DNA of 64,000 bases from Verrucomicrobiota bacterium (lineage in GTDB: Bacteria; Verrucomicrobiota; Verrucomicrobiia; Limisphaerales; AAA164-E04): positions 1,504,001 through 1,568,000 of the forward strand of contig CP170459.1 in assembly GCA_047947115.1 (NCBI GenBank), in the 5' to 3' direction. Positions 1,598-15,962 of this stretch are shown here, one piece after another. The notes beneath the pieces are model-generated. The model was not told where the DNA came from and made no database searches. It saw only the letters and a program-made list of their open reading frames with translations. The position numbers and the translations under genes were made by a program. How positions within the stretch are numbered: the stretch's first letter is position 1; each line of letters starts with the position of its first letter.

Positions 1598-1801
1598 GGT
1601 AGATCGGACCGTCCCGGTCCGCACCTTGTGGCATCCTTACATAAATAAGCCATCCAAAGGAAAACCCAACCGTATCCGAACCCCAATATCACTGGGAGCG
1701 TTTACCAAGGACGCATGTCATTGAAAACCGCAGGCTTCCCAAAGCGGAAGTTGATTGGAATTCGTATGCCACAAGGGCGCGCCAGGGACGGCACGCTCTC
1801 C
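1598..1801 (+). repeat. GTAG-type REPIN-like element, copy A (about 204 bp)
   Basis: GGTAGA + hairpin CGGACCG-TCC-CGGTCCG + CCTTGTGGC at the left; inverted GCCACAAGG...GGGACGGCACGCTCTCC at the right; internal boxes shared with other copies. Confidence 0.85.
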
Positions 1802-1859
1802 TTTTCCATGTTCCAAACGCTTGGAATTTCCATTCTCTGATAGTAGGGTTCACCTGCAC

Positions 1860-3731
1860 ATGATGAGCTTAAATCGACAGTTTGTTGGGATCTTGTTACT
1901 TGCCTTGATAGGAGCTGAAGGCATGCATGCCGCCTCATTGGTTTCCAAAGACCTTATCAAAAACAAACAACATACCCATTTCCGCGTCTCACCAGACGGT
2001 TCCAAAATTGCTTTGTTGGCACCCCATGAAGGAGCCATGAATATTTGGCATCAGGGAGTTGGGCGTGGTAAACGCACACTCATCACGCGTGAATCCCGAT
2101 CTTTGACCCACTTTTTATGGCAATATGATAATGAACATCTCCTTTATCTCCAGGATCAGGATGGCGATCAGCAGCACCATCTTTATCAGGTGGATATAAA
2201 CGGATTCAATACGCGCGACCTGACGCCCTATAGAGGTATTCAGGCACTTGTGGTATCCATGTTGCCTTTGGTGCCGGACCAGATCCTTGTTTCCATGAAC
2301 CTCAACAGCCGGCAGCGGCACGATGTTTTTCGGATCAACTTGGACACCGGCGCGATTGAATCGGACACGATCAATCCAGGATATGTGATTCAATGGGCAG
2401 CTGATGCCGATTTGCAGACAAGGGCAGGAGTGACACTGTCCCCGGGAGGAGATTACGAGATTCTCATCAAGAACCTCGCCAATGGTGAGTGGACTCCCAA
2501 GGTGACGATTCCTGCGGGTCGTGCCATTCCGGGTTTGATCGGATTTTCTCCGGATGGTTCTGTTCTGTGGTATTTGGGAGATGACGAAACCGGGAGCATC
2601 AGGCAATGGGCGTTAAATCTTCAAACAGGCGAAACGGCATCCACTCCTGAAGGAAAAGTGGGTGATGTTGTCGACGTGTTTCGAGATCCTGTCTTGGGGG
2701 TGCCGGAGGGTGTGGCGCTCCGTAATCCCATGAAATCCTGGCGTATGTTTCATGGTGGATATGAAAGTATCATCGAGTTTCTGCGTTTTGAAAAAGGAGA
2801 TCTGTTCTTTCCGAGTCGAAGCCTTCAGAAAAAGGAATGGATCGTAGGATACACCGATCCTCAGATGTCGACTACCTATCAGGTCTATGTTCTGGGAGAT
2901 CGACACAAGGTCATCCTGATGGGAATGGAGCGGCCTAATCTACGCAACGGCAATTTTTCCGCCACCCAACCGGTGTTGATTCCCGGACCTGATGGACAAA
3001 AAATCCGAGCCACATTGAATCGTCCGATCCTGAAAAAGGAAGAACCTGTGCCGACGGTGATTCGGGTCGTGGATGGTGCCATGGATCAACCAACCTTCCA
3101 ATTCGATGAAGAAGCTCAGTGGTTGGCTTACAAAGAAATGGCAGTATTGACGATTTACCCGCCACGCGGTGTGGCTTCGAAAGAGGCAGTGACTGCGCTT
3201 GCTGATGATCATTGGGCCACAGGTTTGAAAGACGACATTCTGGTTGCCAGAAATTGGGCGATTGCAGAAGGACATGCCAAAGATGATCAGATTTATCTCA
3301 AAGGGACTGGTTTGGGTGCTTATGCCGCTCTCTCTGCCGGGGTGAAGCAACCTGATGCTTTCGCGGGTTTGGTTTTGGTGAATGGTGTAACAGATGTTCC
3401 CTCATTTATGAAAGAGTTGCCGACCTATGAACAATCTATCGCGTCCAAGCTGGCCGGATGGTTCACCGGTGACACATCCGGGCAGAAAGCGTGGGTGGAA
3501 CCATCACCGTTGGACCATCTAAATGACCTGGATTCACCTGTTTTGCTAGTGCACGGAGCCAATAATCCTTGGATTCGCAAGGATCAGGCGGGGCGTTTAA
3601 GATCCAAGCTTCTCAACCTTCAGAAGCCGGTGGAAACCCTCTTGATCGAAGGCGAAGGTCACCAGATCATTCAGGAGAACAACGTGATTCGCTACTACGA
3701 GGCCCTGGAAAAATTTCTAAGTGCCAGGTAG
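1860..3731 (+). CDS. S9/prolyl-oligopeptidase-family protein (beta-propeller + alpha/beta hydrolase), probably catalytically inactive
   Basis: Signal-peptide-like N-terminus from ATG 1860, SPDG propeller repeats, LLVHGANN and EGEGH motifs. The nucleophile elbow reads GTGLG instead of GxSxG. Confidence 0.8.
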   Translation: MMSLNRQFVGILLLALIGAEGMHAASLVSKDLIKNKQHTHFRVSPDGSKIALLAPHEGAMNIWHQGVGRGKRTLITRESRSLTHFLWQYDNEHLLYLQDQDGDQQHHLYQVDINGFNTRDLTPYRGIQALVVSMLPLVPDQILVSMNLNSRQRHDVFRINLDTGAIESDTINPGYVIQWAADADLQTRAGVTLSPGGDYEILIKNLANGEWTPKVTIPAGRAIPGLIGFSPDGSVLWYLGDDETGSIRQWALNLQTGETASTPEGKVGDVVDVFRDPVLGVPEGVALRNPMKSWRMFHGGYESIIEFLRFEKGDLFFPSRSLQKKEWIVGYTDPQMSTTYQVYVLGDRHKVILMGMERPNLRNGNFSATQPVLIPGPDGQKIRATLNRPILKKEEPVPTVIRVVDGAMDQPTFQFDEEAQWLAYKEMAVLTIYPPRGVASKEAVTALADDHWATGLKDDILVARNWAIAEGHAKDDQIYLKGTGLGAYAALSAGVKQPDAFAGLVLVNGVTDVPSFMKELPTYEQSIASKLAGWFTGDTSGQKAWVEPSPLDHLNDLDSPVLLVHGANNPWIRKDQAGRLRSKLLNLQKPVETLLIEGEGHQIIQENNVIRYYEALEKFLSAR

Positions 3732-3932
3732 AACGGATCGTCCCCGATCCGCACCTTGTGGAATCCTTGCTCAAAAATGGTATCCAACGGAAACTCTGAT
3801 GTAGTTGAACGCCACAATCTCCATGCGCATTCGGGAGGAATACAGGCTATTGAAAACGGAGGGCTTCCCAAAACGGCCGATGATTGGAATTCGAACGCCA
3901 CTAGGGACGCGCCGGGGACGGCACGATCTACC
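3727..3932 (+). repeat. GTAG-type REPIN-like element, copy B (206 bp)
   Basis: GGTAGAA-CGGATCG-TCCC-CGATCCG-CACCTTGTGG ... GCCACTAGGG...CACGATCTACC. Confidence 0.9.
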
Positions 3933-3946
3933 TGAGGTGGCCTGCA

Positions 3947-4030
3947 GGTAGTGCTGACCGTCCCGGTCCGCTCCTTGTGGTAATCTTATTCAAAACTCCC
4001 ATCCAAAGGAAACCCTTGGAGTAGTCAAAC
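3947..4030 (+). repeat. GTAG-type element, copy C (left half only, runs into the RAYT 3' end)
   Basis: GGTAGTGCTGACCGTCCCGGTCCGCTCCTTGTGG...CATCCAAAGGAAACCC; no right end seen. Confidence 0.75.
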
Positions 4031-4582
4031 ATCCACCACCTCTTCAGTGTGGCGTATCACATATGGCTATAGCTCATTTTTTGCGCACAGTCCGGCACGA
4101 ACTGGATTATTGAGTGTATAAGAGCACTTTTCAACATACTCATTGAGATTCCTGATTCGATGGTCAAAAAAATCCCGCTGCCACTGAATGCCAAAGGCTC
4201 GCGCTGTGTATGATTTCCAGTTTGTGACTGGCTTTCTCAAACCGATATCCACGGGCACAGAAAGCATGGCGTGCAGATGATCCGGCATTAACAGCATGAG
4301 GCGGCAGGTCCATTTGCCGATTTGATGGTAGTAGAAAGCTGATTTCAACAGGGACCACGCTACTAAAGGGTGGCATAGCTGATTGGTGCCCTTAGGTGTG
4401 GTGCAAATGGTGACAAAAAAGCATGGAGAACCGGAAACCCACTGAGGGATATAATGGGCGAGACGGCCTTTGCGTAATTGAGGATTTTTAAATTGGCATT
4501 TCAAAGGCTTTGGCCCTTCGAACTCAATGAAAGCAATTTGTTTTGTGAAGCCAGTAAAACACCTTAATTGAAAGATAGCCAT
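4025..4582 (-). mobile_element. REP-associated tyrosine transposase (RAYT/TnpA-REP, Y1 HUH superfamily); ORF stops at TAG 4067, probably a premature stop
   Basis: FFVTICT, LMPDHLH (HUH), WKSYTA, WQRDFFDHRIR and YTLNNPVRAGL (catalytic Tyr) motifs; flanked by GTAG hairpin repeats. Start codon uncertain. Confidence 0.9.
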
Positions 4583-4591
4583 ACTTTTTTG

Positions 4592-4817
4592 GGTAGATTC
4601 CCGACGAGTCGGTATCTGGGTACGCACCTTGTGGCGTTCTTATTCAAAATTGCCATCCAATGGAACCTCCTGAGGTAATCGAACGCCAAAACCCATCTGT
4701 TTGCGTTTGCATAGAATACAGATCATCGAGAACCACAGGCTTCCCAAAACGGAAGATGATTGGAATTCAAGCGCCACAAGGGGCGCGCCGGGGATACCGC
4801 AGTCGTGGGATTCTGCC
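4592..4817 (+). repeat. GTAG-type REPIN-like element, copy D (226 bp) with alternative terminal hairpins
   Basis: GGTAGATTCCCGACGAGTCGG...CACCTTGTGGCG; internal boxes present; right end GCCACAAGGGGCGCGCCGGGGATACCGCAGTCGTGGGATTCTGCC. Confidence 0.85.
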
Positions 4818-4838
4818 TGATGTGGGCGTTCGTCATTA

Positions 4839-6392
4839 TTAAGGTTTGATCGGGTATCGCTTTACTTTCACATCATTGAGTTGTTCAGGCCCAGGATTGC
4901 TTCGGCCTTTTGTGATCAAGTGTTCCAGCAATTGGCTTAGTTCCGTAACCTTGTCCGGTTGGGTGGCGGCAAGATTGTTCGATTCGGCAATGTCTTTCGA
5001 GAGATCGTATAGCTGTATCGTTGTTTCTGCTTCGCCCTTTGTCCAGCCGCCGGAACCCTTGTCCAGAACCAGTTTCCAATTGCCTCGACGAATGCTGGGA
5101 ATGCCGCGGATGGAGCAACTCACCGAGTGTTCCCGAATAGGTTTGTTCTCACCTTTCAATAGGGGTATCAGGCTGAAACTGTCTTCCCCTTCATTTTCTG
5201 CCAACGGCGTTTCGAGCACATCCGACAGGGTGGCGATCCAATCGGCTTGATGGATCAATTGATGATTTGTGGATCCGGGCGCCACAACCTTGGGCCAACG
5301 CACGATGAAGGGAACACGGTGTCCGCCTTCCCATGCGTCGGATTTGTATCCACGCAGTGGTCCGCTCGGGAAGTGGCCTTTGGCTTCCAATTGGTCAACA
5401 TCGATATAGGGCGCACAGCCATTGTCACTGGTAAACAGGACAAGTGTTTGCTCGGTCTGGCCGCTTTCTTCGAGCGCGTTGAGGATGTTCCCCACAACTG
5501 CGTCGGTTTCCATCACCATGTCGGCATAAAGATTGAGTCCGCTTTGGCCCTTCCATTCATCATTGACGGACAGCGGGGTGTGGGGAGAAGTGAGTGGGAT
5601 TTAGAGCAAGAAAGGTTCTGGAGTGTTCCCTTCGCTTTTGATGAATGCCGAGGCTCGTTCGGCGAGTGCCGGCAGGATGGGTTCCAGCGTCCAGTCTTTG
5701 AGCGCCGGGCCTTGTTTGCTGGCCTGGTTACGCGCCAGTTGTGGGGCTCCAAGAAACTCCGATGGGATGCCCACGGTGCGATCCTGATCGATAAAACAAT
5801 AGGGTGGCCAGTTGGGAACATCCGTTCCAAAATAGAGATCGAATCCTCGTGTGATTGGACCGCCTTCAATGGGTTGAGAGAAGATGGATGACCAAAGCTT
5901 GCGGTGATCCTCGGTTGCCTGCGCGTCGTTGGGGTGGTTGGCACGCATGGCTGGCAAAGCATCGTTTGGAATGGGCCAGTCCCATCCTAAGTGCCACTTC
6001 CCGATGCACGCTGTGTTGTATCCGCTCTTTTTGGCAAGTCCGGCAATAGTCAAGCGATTCGGCGCGATCAGTGTTTTGCCCCAGAGTCCTACAATTCCAG
6101 ATTGCAAGCTGGTGCGCCAGTGGTAGCGTCCGGTCAATAAAGTGTAGCGCGAAGGTGAGCAAACCCCGGAGGAGGAATGCGCATCGGTGAACCGCATCCC
6201 TTCACGCGCCAGGCGGTCAATGTTGGGGGTCGGAATGAGGCCTCGATCCGGGTTGTAACATTGTACATCGCCGTAGCCCAGGTCGTCGGCATAGATGATC
6301 AAAATGTTGGGTGTGTCAGCCGAGGCCGGGGATAGGCCTGCCCAAAGCGAGCTCATCAGGATGGAACAAAAGGATGCGAAGCAGTGTTTCAT
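4839..6392 (-). pseudogene. Arylsulfatase (formylglycine-dependent, Cys-type) split by one in-frame TAA at 5601-5603
   Basis: PNILIIYADDLGYGD, CSPSRYTLLTGR, GKWHLG. The reading continues in frame through the stop (EPFLL*IPLTSPHTP) into FTSDNG, GYKSDAWEGGHRVPFIVRWP and QLYDLSKDIAE. Confidence 0.85.
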
Positions 6393-6471
6393 AAAACAAA
6401 TCAAATGTTCGGGACTCAGATGCAATTTATAGACTCATCTTGCCATGACAAGTCGTGACAGATGAATTATT

Positions 6472-6854
6472 GGAGGGTCGGGTTCCACCCCGAACCCAAA
6501 CTTCCTCCTCGAAACCCTCCTGAGCAAGAGACGTGGAACGCGGGAAGCTGTTGGCAATTGTATGCCTGTGGCGTTTCCATTGCAGCCTGGTGGCGGGTTC
6601 GAGCGTTGCGAGGTCTGAAATGGGAGTCCCGACTCGTCGGGAGAGTTTGCCCCTCCATTTTGTAAATACGGAGGGTCGGGTTCCACCCCGAACCCAAACT
6701 TCTTCCTCGAAACCTTCCTGAGCAAGAGACGTGCAACGCGGGAAGCCGTTGGCAATTGCATGCCTTTGGCGTTTCCATTGCAGCTTGGTGGCGGGTTCGA
6801 GTGTCGCGAGGTCTGAAGTGGGAGTCCCGACTCGTCGGGAGAGTTTGCTCTTCC
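6472..6854. repeat. Tandem pair of 185-bp GGAG-tagged REPIN-like units (6472-6656 and 6670-6854; period 198 bp)
   Basis: Near-identical units that start GGAGGGTCGGGTTCCACCCCGAACCC, contain the hairpin TCCCGAC-TC-GTCGGGA, and end CCCTCC / CTCTTCC. Confidence 0.9.
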
Positions 6855-6870
6855 TGGAATTTTTTGGGTC

Positions 6871-7719
6871 TCAGGAACTCGCGCTGTTGTAGTGCCGCAT
6901 GGCGAAGCGCCACATGGCTTCCGATGCCATCAGGCACACCATCATCATGACAATGAGTGAAACAATTTCCATGGGGCTTTCCATTTTTTGAATAAAAAAC
7001 TTCGTCGGGATATTGGCGACCAACAGCATGGGGACGGCGAAGGTGAAGAATGCTTTGAATCCCCCCTTGAAGGCCGAGTCCGGCAATCGTGCCACGTTGA
7101 AAAGGTTGTAGTATCCCCAGGCAAATCCTTCCGCCTTGATGGTCCAGAAGCTGATGCTGGCCAAGATGAACATCAGTGAGTAGTGGATCATGATCCCGCA
7201 AACACACATTAAAAGGAACCCGGCACATTGGATCAGTGTGGGTTGGAGATTCAATTGCACGCCTGCGTAAACCATCACCGAAATGGCTGCGAGCGTGCTG
7301 ACGTAAGAGCCCAGATCCATGGTTCGAAGAGAGATGAGGAACCGGGAATTGACAGGCAGCAACAGCATGAAATCGAGGCGACCGGTCCTAATGTGTTCGG
7401 AAAGTTGAGTGATGTTGTTCAGGAAAACGGCGTGAAAAAGCTGTTCGATGAAATTGGCAGCGCCAATCAGGAAGATCACTTCATAACGACTCCAGGTGCC
7501 GATGTGATCGGTGTGAGAGTAGATGACCGAAATAAAAGTGATCTGCAGACCGAACCAGAGCATTTCCACCACCAGCCAGAGGAGAAAGTTGGCCTTGAAC
7601 TGCATGTCGCGCATGACGGAGTTGCGACACAACGCTCCGTAAATATTCACATAACGGCGCCACCCCTTTTTCAATGGAGGGATGGAATCTGATTGGCTGA
7701 CCGGGATGGTTTTGTTCAT
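6871..7719 (-). CDS. ABC-2 family transporter permease (DUF990-like)
   Basis: Multi-TM protein, IRTGRLDFMLLLP motif; paired with the upstream paralog. Confidence 0.8.
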   Translation of the reverse strand: MNKTIPVSQSDSIPPLKKGWRRYVNIYGALCRNSVMRDMQFKANFLLWLVVEMLWFGLQITFISVIYSHTDHIGTWSRYEVIFLIGAANFIEQLFHAVFLNNITQLSEHIRTGRLDFMLLLPVNSRFLISLRTMDLGSYVSTLAAISVMVYAGVQLNLQPTLIQCAGFLLMCVCGIMIHYSLMFILASISFWTIKAEGFAWGYYNLFNVARLPDSAFKGGFKAFFTFAVPMLLVANIPTKFFIQKMESPMEIVSLIVMMMVCLMASEAMWRFAMRHYNSASS

Positions 7720-7723
7720 GTGT

Positions 7724-8557
7724 TCATCCTCCTACCGCCGTATAAGATTTGATTCCGCGGCTCCACACAAACCGTGCCGCGAAGAATGCGATGACCAGCC
7801 ATATGAATTGCACGATCAAGCCGTTCCACATGTCGCTTCCCTCGACGCGTCCCAAGTAGATCAACACCGGATAAGACAGAAGATAAGGGAACGGGGTCCA
7901 ATAAAGCAGAGTCTCCAACCAGCCGGGTAACAGGTCAATGGGGAAGAGATGCCCTCCCGCCACATATTCGAAGGCGTACAAGATAAAGATGAACGTCGCC
8001 ACTTCCAGCAGCCAAAACGCCAACAAGGCCATCGTGTAGGAAAGCATGAATTGAAGCAAACCCGTGAGCACCAGGGAAACCAGCGACAGGATCAAAGCTT
8101 CCTTGCTTGCCGGTGAGGCCCAATACTGCTGCTGCCACAGCAAGAACAATCCAACCGGAATGGATGCTACCGCCAGATACATGGCGCGATTGGCAAAGAA
8201 CAGGCTGAGGCGAAAGGTGAGGTAGTCGATGGGTTTCAGTAGGAACTGGCTGATGGTGCCATTTCTAATATCGGCAACGATCTGCCAATCGTCTTCATTC
8301 ACCGCTGTGAGTGAGTTCACGACAAGGATCAGCAGGTAGTAGGAAATCATGTGGGACAACTCATACGTTCCGATGGTCTCTCCTTCGCCTTTCCCTGAGA
8401 AAATGGTTTTCCACAGGAGCACCTGGGCAAGAAGGGGAATCAAGGAAAAGACGGATCGGAAAAGGAAGTTCATCCTGTAGGCAAGCGTGTTCTGGATGCC
8501 GATATTGATGACATGTGCGTATTTGCTGAAGGATGAGAGTCTTGCCGACATATCCAT
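7724..8557 (-). CDS. ABC-2 family transporter permease (DUF990-like)
   Basis: YRMNFL, DIRNGTISQFLLKPIDY, GHLFPIDLLP, ends YTAVGG. Confidence 0.8.
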   Translation of the reverse strand: MDMSARLSSFSKYAHVINIGIQNTLAYRMNFLFRSVFSLIPLLAQVLLWKTIFSGKGEGETIGTYELSHMISYYLLILVVNSLTAVNEDDWQIVADIRNGTISQFLLKPIDYLTFRLSLFFANRAMYLAVASIPVGLFLLWQQQYWASPASKEALILSLVSLVLTGLLQFMLSYTMALLAFWLLEVATFIFILYAFEYVAGGHLFPIDLLPGWLETLLYWTPFPYLLSYPVLIYLGRVEGSDMWNGLIVQFIWLVIAFFAARFVWSRGIKSYTAVGG

Positions 8558-8564
8558 AAAGGTT

Positions 8565-9368
8565 TCAATCCTTGCTTGGACTCACGTAACGTGGAGGATA
8601 AACCGTTTGATGCAATACGGTCGCGAGCTTTTGCGTGAAGCGGTCTATGCCGGTTTTTTCACGAGATCCAAGATCATATCGAATCGCTTTACCGAGATAG
8701 TCCGACCGAAAAGCGGCATCGAACCTTTCGTCATTCCGGACAAAAGCATCCAGATGTTGCATGCCGTTTTGCTTGGCGGCATACAAACCTTTCAGCATGT
8801 CGGGGTGAGCGCTGGATTCACGGATTGCCCAGACCGCATATACAAATGGCAACTGAAAGCATTCTTGCCAGGCTTGTCCCAGGTCCCAGATCTGATGTGG
8901 GGCATGATTCATGCGAAATGAAATGGCGGGATCTCCGATCAGCAACACCGCTTCTTTTTCCACCGCTGTTTCGTAGTCGGTGAGTGGTTGCCATCGAGGA
9001 GTGATACCTTTTTCCAATAACAAGATTTTTAACAGATTGATGCTGGTCAACGAAGCCGGATCACAGTGGACAGTATGCACATTTTCCAGTGGGCATTTGG
9101 TAGCCAGGAAGACGCTTTGGACGGGACCGTCACTCGCTACCGCCACGTCGTCAAGAATGAGATATCCCGGATGCAACAGTGCTTCTGTGATACTGACCAA
9201 AGCGGCATCCAAAGTTTCGTTTTCCAGCATTCCGGCCAGTTGTGATGGCGGCGCAAAAACCACATGATCCTCGATGCCGGCGGTCAGGGGAACGGCATTG
9301 AGGTAGGGAACCGATCCCACACGAAAGCGTGAAAGCGGATGCGTGTCAGTCCTGGAGGGTGCACTCAT
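8565..9368 (-). CDS. mqnA: Chorismate dehydratase MqnA (futalosine menaquinone pathway)
   Basis: VGSVPYLNAVPL, SLTS, LLIGDPA, DLGQAW, LPFVYAVWA; adjacent to mqnE. Confidence 0.85.
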   Translation of the reverse strand: MSAPSRTDTHPLSRFRVGSVPYLNAVPLTAGIEDHVVFAPPSQLAGMLENETLDAALVSITEALLHPGYLILDDVAVASDGPVQSVFLATKCPLENVHTVHCDPASLTSINLLKILLLEKGITPRWQPLTDYETAVEKEAVLLIGDPAISFRMNHAPHQIWDLGQAWQECFQLPFVYAVWAIRESSAHPDMLKGLYAAKQNGMQHLDAFVRNDERFDAAFRSDYLGKAIRYDLGSREKTGIDRFTQKLATVLHQTVYPPRYVSPSKD

Positions 9369-9377
9369 TACGCGGAT

Positions 9378-10511
9378 TCAAGGCTTTTTGACTGGACGAT
9401 TTTCAACCGCGTTTTTTGTGGGGACCGGTTGATAAAAGGTGTTTCGTTGTATGGGTTCACGTCCGGCTTCAACAATAGCCTTGCGCATGGCATCTTCGGT
9501 CTGACCCTGGGGCGAACCGGCTCCTGCCATGTGGAAGATATGCTCTTCAACAATGGTTCCATGCAAATCATCAGCGCCGTAACTCAATGCCACCTGAGCC
9601 ATCTTGAGTCCCATGCCCACCCAGTAGGCGGTGACGTGATCGAAATTGTCCAGGAACAAACGTGCCACCGCAATCGTACGCAGCATGTCGTTGCCTGTGG
9701 GTGGACGATCCACGGGGATTTCATTGTTCTCGGGTTGGTAGGGAAGGGGGACAAAACCGCAAAAACCCCCGGTTTCATCCTGAAGTTCCCTCAGTTGTCT
9801 CATGTGGCTGATGCGATCTTCCAGGGATTCCACATGGCCATAGAGCATGGTGCAGGTGCTTTTACCGCCCAGTTTGTGCCAGCGACGGTGGACATTCAGA
9901 TATTCAGCGGCGGATTCCTTGCCGGTGGCGATTTGTTTTCTCACCTCCGGTTGAAAGATTTCGGCGCCACCGCCTGTCAATGAATCAAGACCACAATCCC
10001 TGAGGGCTCGAAGGGTATCGTCCACCGACTGTTTGGACAGCCAGGCCAAATGCAGGATCTCGACAGCGGTGAAGCATTTCAGCTGTAGCGATGCGCTGAC
10101 ATCTTTCAAGCCGCGCAGCATGTCCGTGTAATAAGAAAATGGCAAACTGGGATGTAATCCACCCACGATGTGCAGTTCGGTGATCCCCAGCGCCAATGCT
10201 TCACGCGCCTTGGTTTGCATCTCCTCGAGGCTGAGTTCGAATCCGTCCTGATCACGCTTTTTTCGGGAGAATGAGCAGAACTGGCAGCTCAGGATGCAGT
10301 AGTTCGAATAGTTGATATATCGATTGACGATGTAGGAGGCGCGGTTCCCGTTTTTTTGTGCATTGACGGCGTTCGCCATGGTGCCCAGCACATTCAGGTC
10401 TGGGCATGTGTACAAACGGAGTGCGTCCTCGTCATTCAAGCGTTGACCGTTCCGAATCTTCTCGTTCAGATCGGCCAGTCCGCTTTTTTCTATCATCCAA
10501 TTCTCACGCAT
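9378..10511 (-). CDS. mqnE: Aminofutalosine synthase MqnE (CofH/MqnC/MqnE radical SAM family)
   Basis: CILSCQFC radical SAM motif, GGGAEIF, TMLYGHVE, AYW, GADDLHGTIVEEHIFHMAGA (MqnE-like rather than MqnC-like). Confidence 0.8.
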   Translation of the reverse strand: MRENWMIEKSGLADLNEKIRNGQRLNDEDALRLYTCPDLNVLGTMANAVNAQKNGNRASYIVNRYINYSNYCILSCQFCSFSRKKRDQDGFELSLEEMQTKAREALALGITELHIVGGLHPSLPFSYYTDMLRGLKDVSASLQLKCFTAVEILHLAWLSKQSVDDTLRALRDCGLDSLTGGGAEIFQPEVRKQIATGKESAAEYLNVHRRWHKLGGKSTCTMLYGHVESLEDRISHMRQLRELQDETGGFCGFVPLPYQPENNEIPVDRPPTGNDMLRTIAVARLFLDNFDHVTAYWVGMGLKMAQVALSYGADDLHGTIVEEHIFHMAGAGSPQGQTEDAMRKAIVEAGREPIQRNTFYQPVPTKNAVENRPVKKP

Positions 10512-10670
10512 GTTTCGGTGCGGGGTGGCGTGGTGTTTTGGTAACCCGCTCTACCCCGCCTGAAACGTGTCTAAAAATGCGTCTGATTTCAAGGGCGGAA
10601 CGCCTTAAATGGGTATTTTGCGGTTTGACCGTCCCCGAAAAGGTGAACTTTCCACGCGGAGCAGCCCGCA

Positions 10671-10889
10671 GGTAGAGCTGATCGTCCCGATCCGCTCCTT
10701 GTGGTATCCTTATCCTAAACTGCGAACCAAAGGAAAACCCCAACGTATCCAAAGGACTAAAAATCCAATGCACACGTCCGAGCAGAGTTTCGGTTATTGA
10801 AAAATTGCAGGCTTCCCGAAACGGAAGTTGATCGGATATTGGACCCCACAGGGACGCGCCAGGGATCCACGCAGTCGCGGGATTCTACC
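10671..10889 (+). repeat. GTAG-type REPIN-like element, copy E (219 bp), hybrid ends
   Basis: Left GGTAGAGCTGATCGTCCCGATCCGCTCCTTGTGG (A/B/C type); right GGGATCCACGCAGTCGCGGGATTCTACC (D type); both internal boxes present. Confidence 0.85.
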
Positions 10890-10996
10890 AATTTTAAGGC
10901 TTTGGCGATTTGTTACGACTTTATCAATGTTGCGAATGGTATGGCTTATGCTCCCTGATGTCGGCTGTTAAAATGAAAGGAAAAGGCATCAGGGTG

Positions 10997-11248
10997 ATGA
11001 AACTCAATACAATTCCGCCTCAGGACTATCTGGAACCCCCGGGGCATGTTAAGACGCAAACGGATATGCAGCTTTGGGCGCGCATCATGATGGAGAGTGA
11101 GTGCCCTTGCATCCATCTGCCGAGATGCGATCCACATACATTTCATCGGATCGCTGATGAACAGGATGTCAGTCCATATCTTGTATACATGTCCGACAAG
11201 GACGAAGCGGACAGCTTGCGATCGTATTGGTTGATCAGGGAATCCTAA
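10997..11248 (+). CDS. Small hypothetical protein (start uncertain, 10910-10997)
   Basis: ORF fills the gap between element E and the metallohydrolase gene; no recognisable motif. Confidence 0.45.
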   Translation: MKLNTIPPQDYLEPPGHVKTQTDMQLWARIMMESECPCIHLPRCDPHTFHRIADEQDVSPYLVYMSDKDEADSLRSYWLIRES

Positions 11249-11304
11249 TCCTGTCAGTGTGCTTTTCGCGTGACCTGCAGGAGTCGACGTTACATTCTTG
11301 TTTC

Positions 11305-12804
11305 ATGAGATTCCTGTTGCTGTTTTTTTTAGGCGCATGGTCATGCTTTGCGGAAAAGGTTCGATGGGTGATCAGTGAAGCCGAATCAGATCAGCCTGCA
11401 CCTTGTCGCATCCATCTGACGGATTCAGAGGATCAACCGGTTCGTGCTCCTGGACTTCCATTTTGGCGTAATCATTTTGATACGCCTGGAGATTTTACAC
11501 TCGATCTCAAACCGGGGTCCTATCGTTTTGAAATTTTCCGTGGTCCCGAATACCTGATGCTTGAAGGTGGCTTTGAAGTCAAAGCGGGGCATGAAATGTT
11601 GATGTTGCGCCATTCGCTCAAGCGCATCGCTCATATGTCGGAGGAAGGTTGGTGGTCCGGGGAATTGCATATTCATCGGCCGGTGAATGAGGTGCCTCTG
11701 TTGATGCGGGCGGAGGATTTGCATGTGGGTCCGGTGATCACCTGGTGGAATCAAAACAATCCATGGAAGGATCTAGCCTTGCCTGAATCTCTTTGGCGTG
11801 AAGTGGCACCTGATCGATTCATCGGCCTCATGGGGGGCGAGGATGAGCGTCGGGGTGGGGCGTTGTTGTATTTTAATCTCAATGAACCATTGGACATTCA
11901 GTCCGCTCAGCCTGAGCATCCGTCCCCCATGATGTTCCTGAATCAAGCCGAGGCGCTTGGGGCCTGGATTGATATTGAAAAGCCGTTCTGGCGGGATGTC
12001 CCTGCATGGATTGCTTCAGGAAAAGCGGATTCCATTGGTCTGGCAAATAATCACATGTGGGAGCGAGGCATGCTCGACAACGAAGCCTGGGGCAGACCTC
12101 GGCCAATGGAAGATTATCCATCACCACAGGGGAACGGACGATGGACGCAGTTTTTGTATTATCACATTCTCAACGCGGGAATCCAACTGGCTCCATCCGC
12201 CGGAAGCGCGTCGGGAGTGTTGAATAATCCGGTGGGCTACAACCGTGTGTATGTGCATTTGGAAAATGGTTTGAATCTGGACGATTGGTGGGAGGGATTG
12301 CGAGAGGGCAGATCGTTTGTGACCAATGGCCCTTTGCTGCGGTGTCGGGTGGGGGAGTCGCTTCCGGGTGCTCGTCTTGTGGTGTCCGGTTCAGATACTT
12401 CCCATCATTTGATGGCACGCTTGACGAGTAGGGATCCGGTCGAAGCGTTTGAAATCATCCACAACGGTGAAGTCATTCGAAGGATTGCGGTGCGGGATTT
12501 GAAAGGAACGATCGAGCAGGATTTGGGGCAAGCTCCCACCGATCGGCCGGGTTGGTTTTTGGTTCGAGCCGTGACATCCCTTCCTCACACGTTTCGTTTT
12601 GCTTCGACCGCGCCCTTTTATGTGGTCGATGACAATGGTGCCATCCCTGTTCGCGAGGACGCTTGTCAATTTTTCCTTACCTGGGCGCGAGAACGTATGA
12701 ATACCCTTTCATTGGAGGATGATCCGTTGCGCGGGGAAGTTTTGGAATACTGGAAGGAGACTGAGGTGTTCTGGATGGATCGTTTGGCCGGCATTGGAAA
12801 ATAG
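11305..12804 (+). CDS. Secreted CehA/McbA-like PHP-fold metallohydrolase
   Basis: Signal peptide, RGPEY, GWWSGELHIHR, SAGSASGV, VGYNRVYV, GRSFVTNGPLL. Confidence 0.7.
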   Translation: MRFLLLFFLGAWSCFAEKVRWVISEAESDQPAPCRIHLTDSEDQPVRAPGLPFWRNHFDTPGDFTLDLKPGSYRFEIFRGPEYLMLEGGFEVKAGHEMLMLRHSLKRIAHMSEEGWWSGELHIHRPVNEVPLLMRAEDLHVGPVITWWNQNNPWKDLALPESLWREVAPDRFIGLMGGEDERRGGALLYFNLNEPLDIQSAQPEHPSPMMFLNQAEALGAWIDIEKPFWRDVPAWIASGKADSIGLANNHMWERGMLDNEAWGRPRPMEDYPSPQGNGRWTQFLYYHILNAGIQLAPSAGSASGVLNNPVGYNRVYVHLENGLNLDDWWEGLREGRSFVTNGPLLRCRVGESLPGARLVVSGSDTSHHLMARLTSRDPVEAFEIIHNGEVIRRIAVRDLKGTIEQDLGQAPTDRPGWFLVRAVTSLPHTFRFASTAPFYVVDDNGAIPVREDACQFFLTWARERMNTLSLEDDPLRGEVLEYWKETEVFWMDRLAGIGK

Positions 12805-12861
12805 GTTGCCCAAGTGGTGTTTCGGGGTAATTTCTTCGACCATGGAGTTTGTGAGGATTAA

Positions 12862-12974
12862 GCCAACGTATTCAGTCCATTTGAATCCACGTCTTGGGGA
12901 CGCAGTTGATTGGAATGGAATTGGGGTGCGATCCAGGCGCGCTCGCGGGCCTGCGTCAGCAGGTCTCTTCTACC
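12862..12974 (+). repeat. Degenerate right half of a GTAG-type element with a third terminal hairpin
   Basis: AGTTGATTGGAAT box at 12904, GGCGCGC, hairpin GGCCTGC-GTCA-GCAGGTC, then TTCTACC. Confidence 0.55.
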
Positions 12975-13042
12975 TGTTGCGTTGGTTGCAATGGCCTAAA
13001 CCCTTGTCCGTTTATGGAAGCGTAGGATAATCATATCAGCCA

Positions 13043-13600
13043 ATGGATCTTCCTTTCAAAATACCTGATCTCAATCCAGCTCAATGGAACCTCGTCACGG
13101 GCATCCTTGTCGGGCTTTCATTGCTCCTCTTTGGGCGAAGATTGTATTGGCTGATGTTTGCGACCGTCTGGTTTCTCGTTGCCATGTTGGTGACCACGGT
13201 TTTTTTACCGCCGACCCAGGAATCGCAGTGGTGGTTGGTGGTCCCGTTTATTGCCGGCATCGCCGGGGCTATCCTGAGCCTCTTTGTGCACAAAACCGCT
13301 CTACGATTTTTCGGCGCACTCGCGGGCGCCTATGTAGGATATCATCTCTTGCAGCCTCACGTTGTGGATCCCTGGCCCTGGGTTGGTTTGGGCGTGGGCG
13401 TGTTGGTGGGATTCCTGATGGTGATGATGGTTTTCAATGGGGCGCTCATTCTCCTGTCCTCCTTGCTTGGGGCCATGTTACTGCTCGAACCCATGTCCGC
13501 CTCCCCGGAAGTCCGCATGGCGGTGACAGCTGGATTGGTCATTGTGGGGTGCGCGATACAAACACGCTCGCGTCCCAAGGACAAGAAAGAGAAAGATTAA
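13043..13600 (+). CDS. Integral membrane protein (DUF4203-like)
   Basis: LLFGRRLYW, about 7 Gly-rich hydrophobic segments, basic C-terminal tail. Confidence 0.65.
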   Translation: MDLPFKIPDLNPAQWNLVTGILVGLSLLLFGRRLYWLMFATVWFLVAMLVTTVFLPPTQESQWWLVVPFIAGIAGAILSLFVHKTALRFFGALAGAYVGYHLLQPHVVDPWPWVGLGVGVLVGFLMVMMVFNGALILLSSLLGAMLLLEPMSASPEVRMAVTAGLVIVGCAIQTRSRPKDKKEKD

Positions 13601-13614
13601 AATCTGATGAGCCC

Positions 13615-14634
13615 TTACTTCTTTGGAGGTTCTACTCCTAATTTTTGGAAGGACAGTGGGGTGGCTGCACGTCCCTGGGGGGTTCGGATGAGGAAGCCTT
13701 CCATGATTAGGTAGGGTTCGTAGACTTCTTCGAGGGTGTCGGATTCTTCTCCGACGGCAACGGCCAGGGAGTTGATGCCGACGGGGCCGCCTCCGAATTT
13801 GATGACAATGCATTCCAAGATGCGTTTGTCCATTTCATCGAGTCCGTTTTCGTCGATTTCCAGCATGGCAAGGGCTTTGTCCGCTATGTCGGCGGTGACG
13901 CGGCCGTCGTGGCGGACCTGGGCGTAGTCCCGAACGCGGCGCAGGAGATTGTTGGCGATGCGCGGGGTGCCCCGGCTGCGTCGGGCGATTTCAAAGGCGC
14001 CTTCGGTTTCCATCTCCACGTTCAGCAGGCGCGCGGATCGGAGCACGATCTTTTGCAGGTAATCAGCCGGGTAATGATCCAATCGTTCACGCACCGGGAA
14101 TCGACTCAGCAGCGGAGCCGACAAGAGTCCGCTGCGGGTGGTGGCTCCGATGAGGGTGAATTTGGGGAGGTTCAGGCGGACGCTGCGGGCGTTGGGGCCC
14201 TGGTCGATGATGATGTCCAGTTTGTAGTCTTCCATCGCAGGATAGAGGTATTCCTCAATGGTTTTCTGCATGCGATGGATTTCGTCAATGAAGAGGACGT
14301 CACCTTCTTCGAGGTTGGTCAGGAGTCCTGCCAGGTCCCCCGCTTTTTCGATGGTCGGTCCGCTGGTGCTTTTGAGACTGGCTCCCATGCTTTTGGCAAT
14401 GATGCCGGCGAGGGTGGTTTTGCCCAGGCCGGGGGGGCCGTTGAGGAGGATGTGATCCAGCACGTCGCCCCGTTGCTTGGCGGCCTGGACGGCAATTTCG
14501 AGACGTTCCTTGATTTTGTCCTGACCGGTGAAGTCGGAGAACAGCGAGGGTCTCAGCGTCAGTTCCAATGCTGAGTCCGGTCGATTCAAAGTTTCCAGGG
14601 GCCGTTCGTCCATGTGATGGAAAACATGCGCCAT
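13615..14634 (-). CDS. ruvB: Holliday junction branch migration helicase RuvB (start may be 14613)
   Basis: [49 protein letters not shown]. Confidence 0.97.
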
Positions 14635-14752
14635 GGCCGGGATTGCGACAAGCTGAAAACGATAACGAGCTGTCTTTGGGGGATTTTGTTTGGGAACCGT
14701 AGATTGTGCAGCTTGTCGCAGATTTTTTAAGGGTCGGTTTTTCTGTGCGTCA

Positions 14753-14821
14753 GGGTTTCCTTTGGGTGGTGGGTTTGGTTAGCGGTGCCATAAGGGGCGC
14801 ATCGAGACGATCCGATCTACC
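14753..14821 (-). repeat. GTAG-type element, copy F (half element, inverted)
   Basis: Reverse complement reads GGTAGATCGGATCGTCTCGATGCGCCCCTTATGGC...CCCAAAGGAAACCC; 69-bp near-duplicate of 14909-14977. Confidence 0.8.
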
Positions 14822-14835
14822 ATGGGTGAGCTGCA

Positions 14836-14977
14836 GGTAGATCGGATCGTCCCTGATCCGTGCCTTGTGGTTTTCGAAGGGCAATCAACTTCCGTTTGGG
14901 AAGCCATTGGGTTTCCTTTGGGTGGTGGGTTTGGTTAGGGGTGCCACAAGGGGCGCATCGAGACGATACGGTCTACC
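14836..14977 (-). repeat. GTAG-type element, copy G (142 bp, internally deleted, inverted)
   Basis: Both GGTAG/CTACC ends present; both internal boxes present on the minus strand but nearly abutting. Confidence 0.85.
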
Positions 14978-14989
14978 TGGTGGGGTTGG

Positions 14990-15853
14990 TCAAAGGTAAC
15001 GTTCCAGGATCGGCCCCAGTTTATCGATGGTTTCCTGGGGCCAGGCGTCGCGTTGGGTGATGACGGCGTTTTTCAGAGCGTCGTGTGCCGGCCAGTTTGC
15101 TTTCTCCGGGATTTTGGGAATGATGGAGGTGAGGAGTTTTCGGGCGGTGCCGGTGTTGCGGTGGAGGTATTCGATGACTTGTTCGACAGTGACGTGGTCG
15201 TGATCTTCATTCCAGGCGTCGTAGTCGGTGACCATGGCCATGGTGGCGTAGGAGATTTCCGCTTCGCGGGCACATTTTGCTTCACCAAGGTTGGTCATGC
15301 CTATGACGGCGCATTCGGCGTGGTGGTTGAGCAGGGATTCGGCTTTGGTGCTGAAGGCGGGGCCTTCCATGTTGACGTAGCTGCCTCCGTCGTGGCAGGG
15401 GACTTCGTGTTCCTGCGCGGTTTTCAGAAGGATTTGTCGCAGGTTTTCGCAGATCGGGTGGGCAAAGGCGATGTGGGCGACGATGCCTTGTCCAAAGAAG
15501 GTATGGTTTTGGGATTGTTTGGTTCGGTCGACAAACTGGTCGATGAAGACGATGTCGCAGGGATGGTATTGGGGTTGGAGGGAACCGACGGCGCTGACGC
15601 TGATGATCCATTTGACGCCGAGCGATTTCATGGCCCAGATGTTGGCGCGGTGGTTGAGTTCGGCGGGCATCAGGCGGTGTCCTCTGGCGTGTCTGGGTAG
15701 GAATACCACGTCGCGGCCTTCCAGTTTTCCGGTCAGAAATGCGTCCGAAGGTTTGCCAAAGGGGGTGTCGACCGATGTCCAGTTTTGGTCGGTGAATCCT
15801 TCCAGATTGTAAAGTCCGCTGCCTCCAATAATACCAATGCGATGATTCGACAT
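14990..15853 (-). CDS. mtnP: S-methyl-5'-thioadenosine phosphorylase
   Basis: IGIIGGSGLY, TPFGKPSD, FLPRH, SAVGSL, MEGPAFSTKAES, IGMT, VTDYD. Confidence 0.93.
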   Translation of the reverse strand: MSNHRIGIIGGSGLYNLEGFTDQNWTSVDTPFGKPSDAFLTGKLEGRDVVFLPRHARGHRLMPAELNHRANIWAMKSLGVKWIISVSAVGSLQPQYHPCDIVFIDQFVDRTKQSQNHTFFGQGIVAHIAFAHPICENLRQILLKTAQEHEVPCHDGGSYVNMEGPAFSTKAESLLNHHAECAVIGMTNLGEAKCAREAEISYATMAMVTDYDAWNEDHDHVTVEQVIEYLHRNTGTARKLLTSIIPKIPEKANWPAHDALKNAVITQRDAWPQETIDKLGPILERYL

Positions 15854-15962
15854 GGCGGCATTATGGTGGGAGGAGTCGTTGTGACAAATGAAAACGCTGA
15901 TTTTAGCTTTGATTTATGGTTTGGAAGAACTAGATTGTCCAGCTTTTGATAAAGGCAGAAGT

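Follow-up and report, generated by a model that had tools for sequence, protein, structure and literature searches.

The 64,000-bp window analysed here (G000:C1:1504001-1568000, part of the single contig CP170459.1 of the 6.08-Mb genome of a Verrucomicrobiota bacterium) contains a gene for a REP-associated tyrosine transposase (RAYT, also called TnpA-REP) amid long repeats of the repetitive extragenic palindrome (REP) type. Our explanation of the whole is a REPtron with a single-copy RAYT and polarised REP doublets, which are likely copied as single-stranded DNA (ssDNA) at the replication fork, and we give it a probability of about 0.58. Its fork component rests on the nearly uniform orientation of the doublets to replication, which suggests copying on ssDNA at the fork. 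This replichore polarity was absent from an earlier reading of the window made without database searches (the sequence-only reading), and it is the most informative property of the family.

The family was defined by a profile hidden Markov model (HMM) built on 29 full copies, with which nhmmer finds 174 matches in the genome at E<0.01 and none in the reversed genome. Profiles of the single arms give 196 matches genome-wide, comprising 54 inward-facing pairs (45 of a left with a right arm, L-R, and 9 of the same type) and 88 unpaired arms. The lengths of the 54 pairs peak at 203–211 and 140–144 bp. Genome-wide there is a long class of about 205 bp (38 L-R units of 185–240 bp) and a short class of about 142 bp (34 units), which supplies the copy-number scan that the sequence-only reading had proposed. 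The doublets are intergenic, 37 of the 38 long units lying outside long open reading frames (ORFs), and the median pairwise identity among family copies is 64%.

Replichore limits were taken from GC skew at 1.10 and 3.99 Mb, and the orientation of FtsK-orienting polar sequences (KOPS) agrees with the skew in 86% of 877. Long units run from L to R on the leading-strand sequence in 35 of 38 copies and in 19 of 21 20-kb clusters (p 2e-4), which are scattered around the whole chromosome. Short units have L on the same strand (31 of 34 copies; 23 of 26 clusters), and the L REP motif is leading at 33 of the 37 decided sites (38 sites, one tie). The polarity holds whatever the orientation of the flanking genes: L is leading at 13 of 15 convergent and 4 of 4 divergent sites, at 12 of 12 sites among leading-strand genes and at 4 of 6 among lagging-strand genes. 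ORFs are leading in merely 54% of cases in this genome; the element itself has no GC skew, and KOPS occur in merely 2 of 31 copies.

Other GTAG-REP families of the same genome are also polarised. The first is leading at 13 of 15 sites (its partner arm at 3 of 16), the second at 1 of 17 (16 of 17 one way) and the third at 4 of 20 (16 of 20 one way). Three non-GTAG palindrome families are unskewed (14:14, 11:13 and mostly ties), although these may be symmetric and hence uninformative. In E. coli K-12, doublets of the type 2 bacterial interspersed mosaic element (BIME-2; ~93-bp unit, record L248) have one polarity at 43 of 63 sites among the matches listed (p 0.005). This control used 97 full-span BIME matches among 150 listed of 229, with oriC and dif as reference points and transcription uncontrolled. 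A literature search, in which bioRxiv 119735 was covered in part, returned no report of genome-wide fork polarity of REP doublets; figures, supplements and older BIME surveys lay outside it and may mention orientation.

The leading-strand sequence is the lagging-strand template. The insertion sequences (IS) IS608 and ISDra2 excise and insert on the lagging-strand template (PMC5027513, PMC3971601), and the cut sites of TnpA-REP are CT and CA (PMC8266576). On the model of the biochemistry of E. coli and Pseudomonas-type TnpA-REP (PMC3333891, PMC8266576) and of IS608 (PMC5027513), the RAYT would attach to the L hairpin, along with its 5' GTAG, when the lagging-strand template lays this bare. Cleavage would fall at C-T or C-A sites, both 5' of the REP and within the inverted REP at the far end. 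The cut strand would then be pasted into ssDNA of the fork, often in or beside a nearby existing copy, and the polarity would always be the same. CA stands directly before GGTAG at 75 of 158 ends. In the papers covered, evidence on the spread of REPs and REP doublets (REPINs) consists of in vitro cleavage and rare excision reads. We lean, by a little, towards fork-coupled, strand-specific copying of the doublets by the RAYT, as for IS608. A more tentative proposal, for which we see slightly less than an even chance, is that the L REP is the loading end, that products are pasted into neighbours within ~20 kb, and that such polarity extends across independent RAYT-REP families, probably including that of E. 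coli.

The gene (4025-4582, minus strand; 185 aa in intact alleles) is flanked by elements B, C and D of the family, and the HUH/Tyr transposase gene proposed earlier between C and D is indeed there. Its product is a RAYT/TnpA-REP and not an IS200/IS605 TnpA. The motifs DHLH, WQ and YTLNNP are invariant or nearly so across 21 aligned sequences, and the single NCBIfam match of the window protein is NF047646 (REP_Tyr_transpos; E 3e-17, 62.9 bits), which matches all 21 aligned homologs, while IS200 weakly matches 9 of the 21. In profile comparison, PDB 4ER8 is reached at E 3e-14 versus 3e-3 for ISDra2, and the predicted fold has a root mean square deviation of 1.9 to 4ER8 versus 4–10 to IS200-type TnpA. 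4ER8 is the E. coli TnpA-REP, and Y---NP marks class 2 whereas Y---Q marks the IS200 class (PMC6006769 Table 1). In a 44-row tree, the tree placement that the sequence-only reading had asked for, the eight IS200 rows group together in a single clade (100/100), and the window allele in its intact form falls in an 18-row clade of the Planctomycetes-Verrucomicrobia-Chlamydiae (PVC) lineage (98/96). A motif filter kept E. coli RayT and two plasmid proteins out of this tree, and two of its rows are imperfect (rel_L048, a wrong ORF; L268, truncated). Motifs and size resemble subclasses 2.5 and 2.7 (PMC6006769 Table 1), with the deep branches of the tree not settled. The PVC host lineage, also part of that reading, agrees with the closest protein homologs, which bear the name Verrucomicrobiota.

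Two other assignments of the enzyme were rejected. The TIRtron/TIRYT subclass 2.1 has long proteins with a C-terminal helix-turn-helix and non-GTAG terminal inverted repeats, whereas this protein has 185 aa and its REPs are of the GTAG type. Membership of IS200/IS605 disagrees with the lack of Y---Q, the position outside the IS200 clade and the single copy: there is one close copy in the genome, and no NF033573 match at 1e-20.

These properties also bear on the idea that the repeats are MITEs (transposable elements of miniature size that carry inverted repeats) moved by a DDE transposase, or that the gene encodes a TnpA of IS200/IS605 that has ends of its own, so that gene and repeats are associated by chance. 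Their MITE-like size and ~36-bp imperfect terminal inverted repeats would suit it, and the difference between this genome and its congener (G001) can be read as a cassette insertion. However, no excess of 2–9 bp target-site duplications over shuffles was found in 42 clean copies, which is the opposite of what the sequence-only reading had named as grounds for a MITE. The ends are GTAG-tagged hairpins, the closest RAYT homologs are flanked by the same REP, and the single-copy gene has the motifs and tree position of class 2. This explanation is largely refuted, and we consider it very improbable. The repeats are heterodimeric GTAG-REP doublets, intergenic and without target duplications, and that locus and repeats together make up a REPtron is very probable.

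In the assembly studied, the RAYT gene has a premature TAG at 4067-4069. This codon reads TGG in 3 of 3 sequencing runs covering the site, and a fourth run does not reach it. The protein cluster has 11 members: 8 are full length (7 of 185 aa and 1 of 200 aa) and all read through the TAG codon, and the remaining three are the 171-aa form from this assembly and two short fragments. The stop is confined to the one assembly, so that in the species at large the gene is mostly intact, and an enzyme dead in the species was rejected for the same reason. A stop-repaired enzyme, which the sequence-only reading had proposed for biochemistry, is not needed because intact natural alleles exist. The first ~45 residues are predicted to be disordered (predicted local distance difference test), so translation may in fact begin at a more internal position. 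The gene itself is oriented against the fork. RNA contigs cover the locus; they cannot show transcription and were not used.

The REP type is associated with this enzyme. At the two closest RAYT loci, L021 and L048 (65% and 68% identity), the gene is followed by doublets of 135–142 bp with the same L REP, which ties the REP type to the enzyme by association; the other short RAYTs of the source genome are flanked by different REPs. Judged by these loci, this REP type travels with this RAYT sub-clade. Two such short RAYT-like genes were noted (G000:C1 5390980-5391411 and 2361103-2361468), each with its own ~100-bp GTAG doublet family, and three Y1 proteins of 349–368 aa at 385, 776 and 1066 kb are separate genes without obvious REPs.

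By a crude rule, a doublet of the GT[AG]G type lies close to the RAYT at 112 of the 172 loci examined; this finder mis-seeded the window's own locus and included redundant loci, and lengths were taken from a non-redundant set of 56. In that set doublets have a median length of 94 bp and a 90th percentile of 173 bp, and six have 179–220 bp, which places 205 bp at the long end of a continuum. In this RAYT clade doublets span about 54–250 bp, and at 8 loci with at least two doublets over 120 bp the interiors are 52–91% alike. The sequence-only reading had seen a unit longer and more modular than a simple doublet. It is still a REP doublet with a length within the range of its own clade, and modular heterodimers have been described (PMC3333891, PMC3733652). 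Length and modularity by themselves would add little to the diversity of REPINs already known.

Each long arm consists of GGTAG, a 6-bp hairpin, CCTTGTGG, ~27 variable bases and a conserved purine-rich block. In the 205-bp unit an L arm (~97 bp) faces an R arm (~86 bp) around a core, and the 142-bp unit is a single long arm with a short L end. Full copies have imperfect terminal inverted repeats of ~36 bp (GGTAG, hairpin and CCTTGTGG), in line with the ~35 bp given before. The interior, earlier called colinear and conserved, is colinear and conserved only in part: among paralogs (457 pairs) identity is 77–79% at the ends and 64% and 72% in the inner blocks, but 39% in the 43-column core. Between the source genome and its congener (15 ortholog pairs) it is 82–85% at the ends, 82% and 87% in the blocks and 77% in the core. 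The core of the 205-bp unit is fast-evolving and flanked by two facing long arms. The top covarying pair (CG in 21 and TA in 10 of 36 copies) sits in the L hairpin and is the sole clear compensatory change. No long-range covariation was found between the element ends, though these can pair. A structured RNA or internal hairpins were rejected, with no Rfam match near threshold, no compensatory changes in two candidate inner hairpins, and a median folding z of -0.2 for the interior versus -2.0 for the whole element in 20 copies.

This anatomy is relevant to a different origin of the polarity, in which insertion would be unbiased and loss or selection would act later, through hairpin-induced deletion, fork stalling on the lagging-strand template, or some function of the inner blocks for the host, for instance in binding a protein or in processing RNA 3' ends. 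The R hairpin is indeed stable on one strand alone (-5.8 vs -3.8 kcal/mol, with a G-T pair), whereas L is equal on both. Among paralogs the core is less well conserved than the inner blocks, the interior is lost in population contigs, and sites flanked by convergent genes (14 of 38) outnumber those flanked by divergent ones (7). However, whole-element folding energy is alike on both strands (mean difference 0.65 kcal/mol; L-first strand lower in 11 of 31), sites like those of the integration host factor (IHF) are not above chance (4 of 31 copies vs 5.0 in shuffles), the interior has no covariation or folding signal, and in orthologs the blocks are modestly above the core. We regard this origin as unlikely, and polarised copying at the fork remains our preferred explanation.

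A historical origin of the polarity has to be weighed against the relatives. By DNA query, the family occurs in 1 of 21 other genomes of the taxonomic family, the congener G001 (52 matches; assembly 88% complete). Of 401 genomes of the order, two (one being the source genome) have the L-REP pattern, and no RAYT closer than 51% was found in the other 400. At the orthologous site G001 lacks a RAYT and has a single element, C-like at its end and D-like in its interior. Deletion across the direct repeats C and D would explain this most simply, and the RAYT region may instead be present in the source genome through insertion. G001 has about as many copies despite the lack of the gene at this site. 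Elsewhere, sites are common to both genomes, while tandem number and terminal variants differ. Among 33 G001 clusters examined, 24 were mapped syntenically. A script called 4 sites empty, and the inspected ones have a decayed copy in the source genome or an ambiguous junction flanked by N.

Copies at least 85% identical to each other are never more than 20 kb apart, and pairs separated by over 50 kb reach 82% at best. At some loci, neighbouring copies group by species in the tree though both species hold both sites, indicating local overwriting. Long-range spread is old, and the recent change is tandem gain and loss together with local overwriting. A tandem array at G000:C1 1755624-1756372 has five ~187-bp units; the opening arm of every unit is of the R type and lies on the leading strand, opposite to the usual polarity.

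Accordingly, the copies could be ordinary RAYT-born REPINs whose polarity comes from a few founders, local copying on the same strand (tandem duplication or RecA-type conversion) and inversions symmetric about origin and terminus, which keep polarity. The clustering of near-identical copies within 20 kb, the differences in tandem number and end swaps at common sites, the lack of a clean empty site in the G001 stretches examined and the persistence of copies in G001 without the gene all fit such a history. It is at odds with the separate polarisation of two size classes and three unrelated GTAG-REP families, with the spread of the copies in 21 clusters round the whole chromosome and with the similar lean of the listed E. 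coli BIME matches; the unpolarised non-GTAG palindromes, if informative despite their possible symmetry, would count the same way. We judge this history improbable, though slightly less so than bias after insertion.

Several points weigh against fork-coupled copying by a RAYT. TnpA-REP is reported to cut both strands of BIMEs, unlike IS608 (Ton-Hoang 2012), and PMC3333891, while stating that the lagging strand 'could' be used, argues for cleavage of both. CA stands before the two ends at similar rates (L 20 of 33; R 17 of 33), so the flanks reveal no L-specific cut. A DnaA-like motif lies at 5.94 Mb (G000:C1 5937120-5938506), far from the skew minimum at 1.10 Mb. The polarity of the R REP is weaker (lagging at 59 of 76), the partner arm in the GTAG family at 2361 kb is unbiased (7 of 17), and in two other PVC genomes 12 of 20 sites point one way by hand count (G463) or replichores are not resolvable from 20 samples (G465). 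Because copies are linked by descent and local copying, the p-values of polarity are overstated. No clean, precise empty site was found among the mapped G001 clusters listed, in a search of 20 G001 stretches covering part of its 52 matches, which leaves movement to new sites a putative step. Finally, the RAYT protein falls below the family cut-offs (NCBIfam 62.9 vs 80; Pfam 19.2 vs 23).

The system is of a known kind, and the long, strongly asymmetric doublet is its new part. In E. coli BIME-1, a heterodimer, the linker is long and conserved (PMC3333891); GTAG dimers whose spacers are conserved have been described, including in Opitutus terrae (PMC3733652); and REPINs usually measure about 100 bp (bioRxiv 2021.07.10.451892). 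Like the E. coli REPtron with its BIMEs, the locus has a single RAYT amid REPs, inverted heterodimeric doublets and tandem numbers varying at fixed loci (PMC3333891). It differs in the REP sequence, in a distant RAYT clade (24–28% identity), in the unit length of ~205 bp against the ~93 bp of the BIME-2-type unit used, in having no IHF-like site above chance, and in a much stronger polarity (35/38 versus 43/63 for BIMEs among the matches listed).

With the REPINs of Pseudomonas fluorescens SBW25 the family has in common the doublet unit, fixed preferred lengths, divergent spacers and decay after RAYT loss (PMC3116915, PMC3337134; bioRxiv 2021.07.10.451892). Central excision in SBW25 leaves a palindromic singlet (PMC3337134), and the like is seen here at element E in contigs of runs X2 and X8; short double-footed singlets were not found in the source genome by one regular expression. 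The SBW25 units, however, are ~100 bp long, number hundreds and form a single long hairpin, in contrast to the tens of copies with diverged arms and a non-folding interior here, and the text covered reports no genome-wide fork polarity for them. The GTAG REPs of PVC bacteria (GTAG-17/19/20 of Opitutus terrae) are similar in that several families occur per genome, each with its own REPtron, and in having dimers with conserved spacers and REPs that overlap the ends of transposase genes, but their spacers are mostly 20–100 bp (PMC3733652) versus ~150 bp here. IS608 and ISDra2 share the HUH/Y1 chemistry on ssDNA hairpins, the lack of target-site duplications and an active strand biased to the lagging-strand template (PMC5027513, PMC3971601); they are autonomous multi-copy IS with Y---Q transposases, whereas here a single-copy class 2 enzyme accompanies non-coding polarised units. 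The grounds for interest in the sequence-only reading, length and a conserved interior, are mostly explained by known REPIN and BIME diversity.

That reading had listed eight elements in the window, of which seven are present where it had placed them. The four that it took as full length, A, B, D and E, score 142–177 bits against the family HMM, with 70–76% pairwise identity. Element A (1598-1801, plus strand) is a full L-R doublet with the right end short one base of CTACC (HMM columns 1–203, 177 bits); its G001 ortholog is a tandem pair whose end reads CTACC. A terminator-like hairpin with a T run lies immediately upstream (1565-1597) and is conserved in G001. Element B (3727-3932, plus) is a full 206-bp L-R doublet in tandem with C (columns 1–206, 177 bits), and the G001 site has no separate counterpart. 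Element D (4592-4817, plus; 156 bits) is a full doublet upstream of the RAYT gene with lengthened hairpins at both termini, and element E (10671-10889, plus; 142 bits) is a full doublet with a lengthened right end, whose G001 counterpart is a tandem array. The lengthened hairpin variants (4592-4625, 4775-4817 and 10850-10889) occur at some ends and differ between orthologs of the two genomes while the interiors are the same, so the ends appear to be exchanged separately.

C and F are halves, as proposed, and G is internally deleted. Element C (3947-4046, plus) is a left arm of ~100 bp with the L REP, CCTTGTGG, the inner block and ~25 bp of interior, and at its inner end it runs over the final ~7 codons and the stop of the RAYT gene. 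Compared with 35 other cores, 4021-4046 beats 399 of 400 shuffles and all of 1000 random segments, and 4047-4076 is at chance level. Capture of the 205-bp core from the RAYT 3' end was considered and rejected, C being a 3' overlap. The RAYT tail scored above chance as a whole; when it was split, the last ~7 codons alone match, a stretch common to the 142-bp class, and the WPYV portion does no better than chance (201 of 400 shuffles; p about 0.05 when set against three D-like copies). No such capture was found in 92 doublets from the 56 homologous loci, bar an ORF running into its REP at L152, where the homologous RAYT reads through into the downstream doublet (2390-2460), a 3' overlap as in C.

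Element F (14753-14821, minus) is a left arm, a direct repeat of the end of G (94% identical to 14909-14977) and an exception to the polarity. Element G (14836-14977, minus) is a right arm and a left arm joined without the ~60-bp core, with the R-arm HMM matching 14836-14915 (plus) and the L-arm HMM 14977-14903 (minus); 155–166 bp of F and G are collapsed in contigs from three runs. The eighth element (12862-12974, plus), possibly a very decayed right arm ending in CTACC, is doubtful because four HMMs missed it (--max, E<=5, window-wide) and 9 of 500 random genomic segments equal its alignment score to the consensus.

Other variable sites are found between and beside the elements. In X2 and X8 contigs the interior of E is absent, leaving a palindromic singlet, and further deletions of ~560, ~624 and ~845 bases in 10697-12842 run through a 525-aa gene without Pfam match (11227-12804). 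A polymorphic insertion point lies at 13609-13612 between convergent genes; ~228 extra bases are present there in X2 and X5 contigs, and a ~926-base insert without BLAST match in the source genome occupies it in G001. We take the right-hand gene beside it to be RuvB-like. Two 185-bp direct repeats (6442-6854; 94% identical, spacing 198), unrelated to the REP family, have a 35-bp inverted match 9.3 kb away at 15822-15856. The most frequent 16-mers of the source genome (40 copies) tile a ~28-bp palindromic repeat, presumably a type I-E CRISPR repeat.

A replichore polarity of ~90% is genomic evidence on the means by which REPs and REPINs spread in vivo. The polarity deserves to be pursued, since it opens the route of REPIN spread in the cell to testing: it predicts the REP and the strand preferred by the enzyme, which can be checked across complete genomes. 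The locus, at least partly present in 20 of 24 listed seawater and estuary run rows, offers a natural comparison between the intact alleles of a marine species of wide occurrence, the nonsense allele of the assembly studied and a congener without the gene at the site. If the more tentative proposal above is true, asymmetric doublets would be a sequence-only readout of REPIN transposition.

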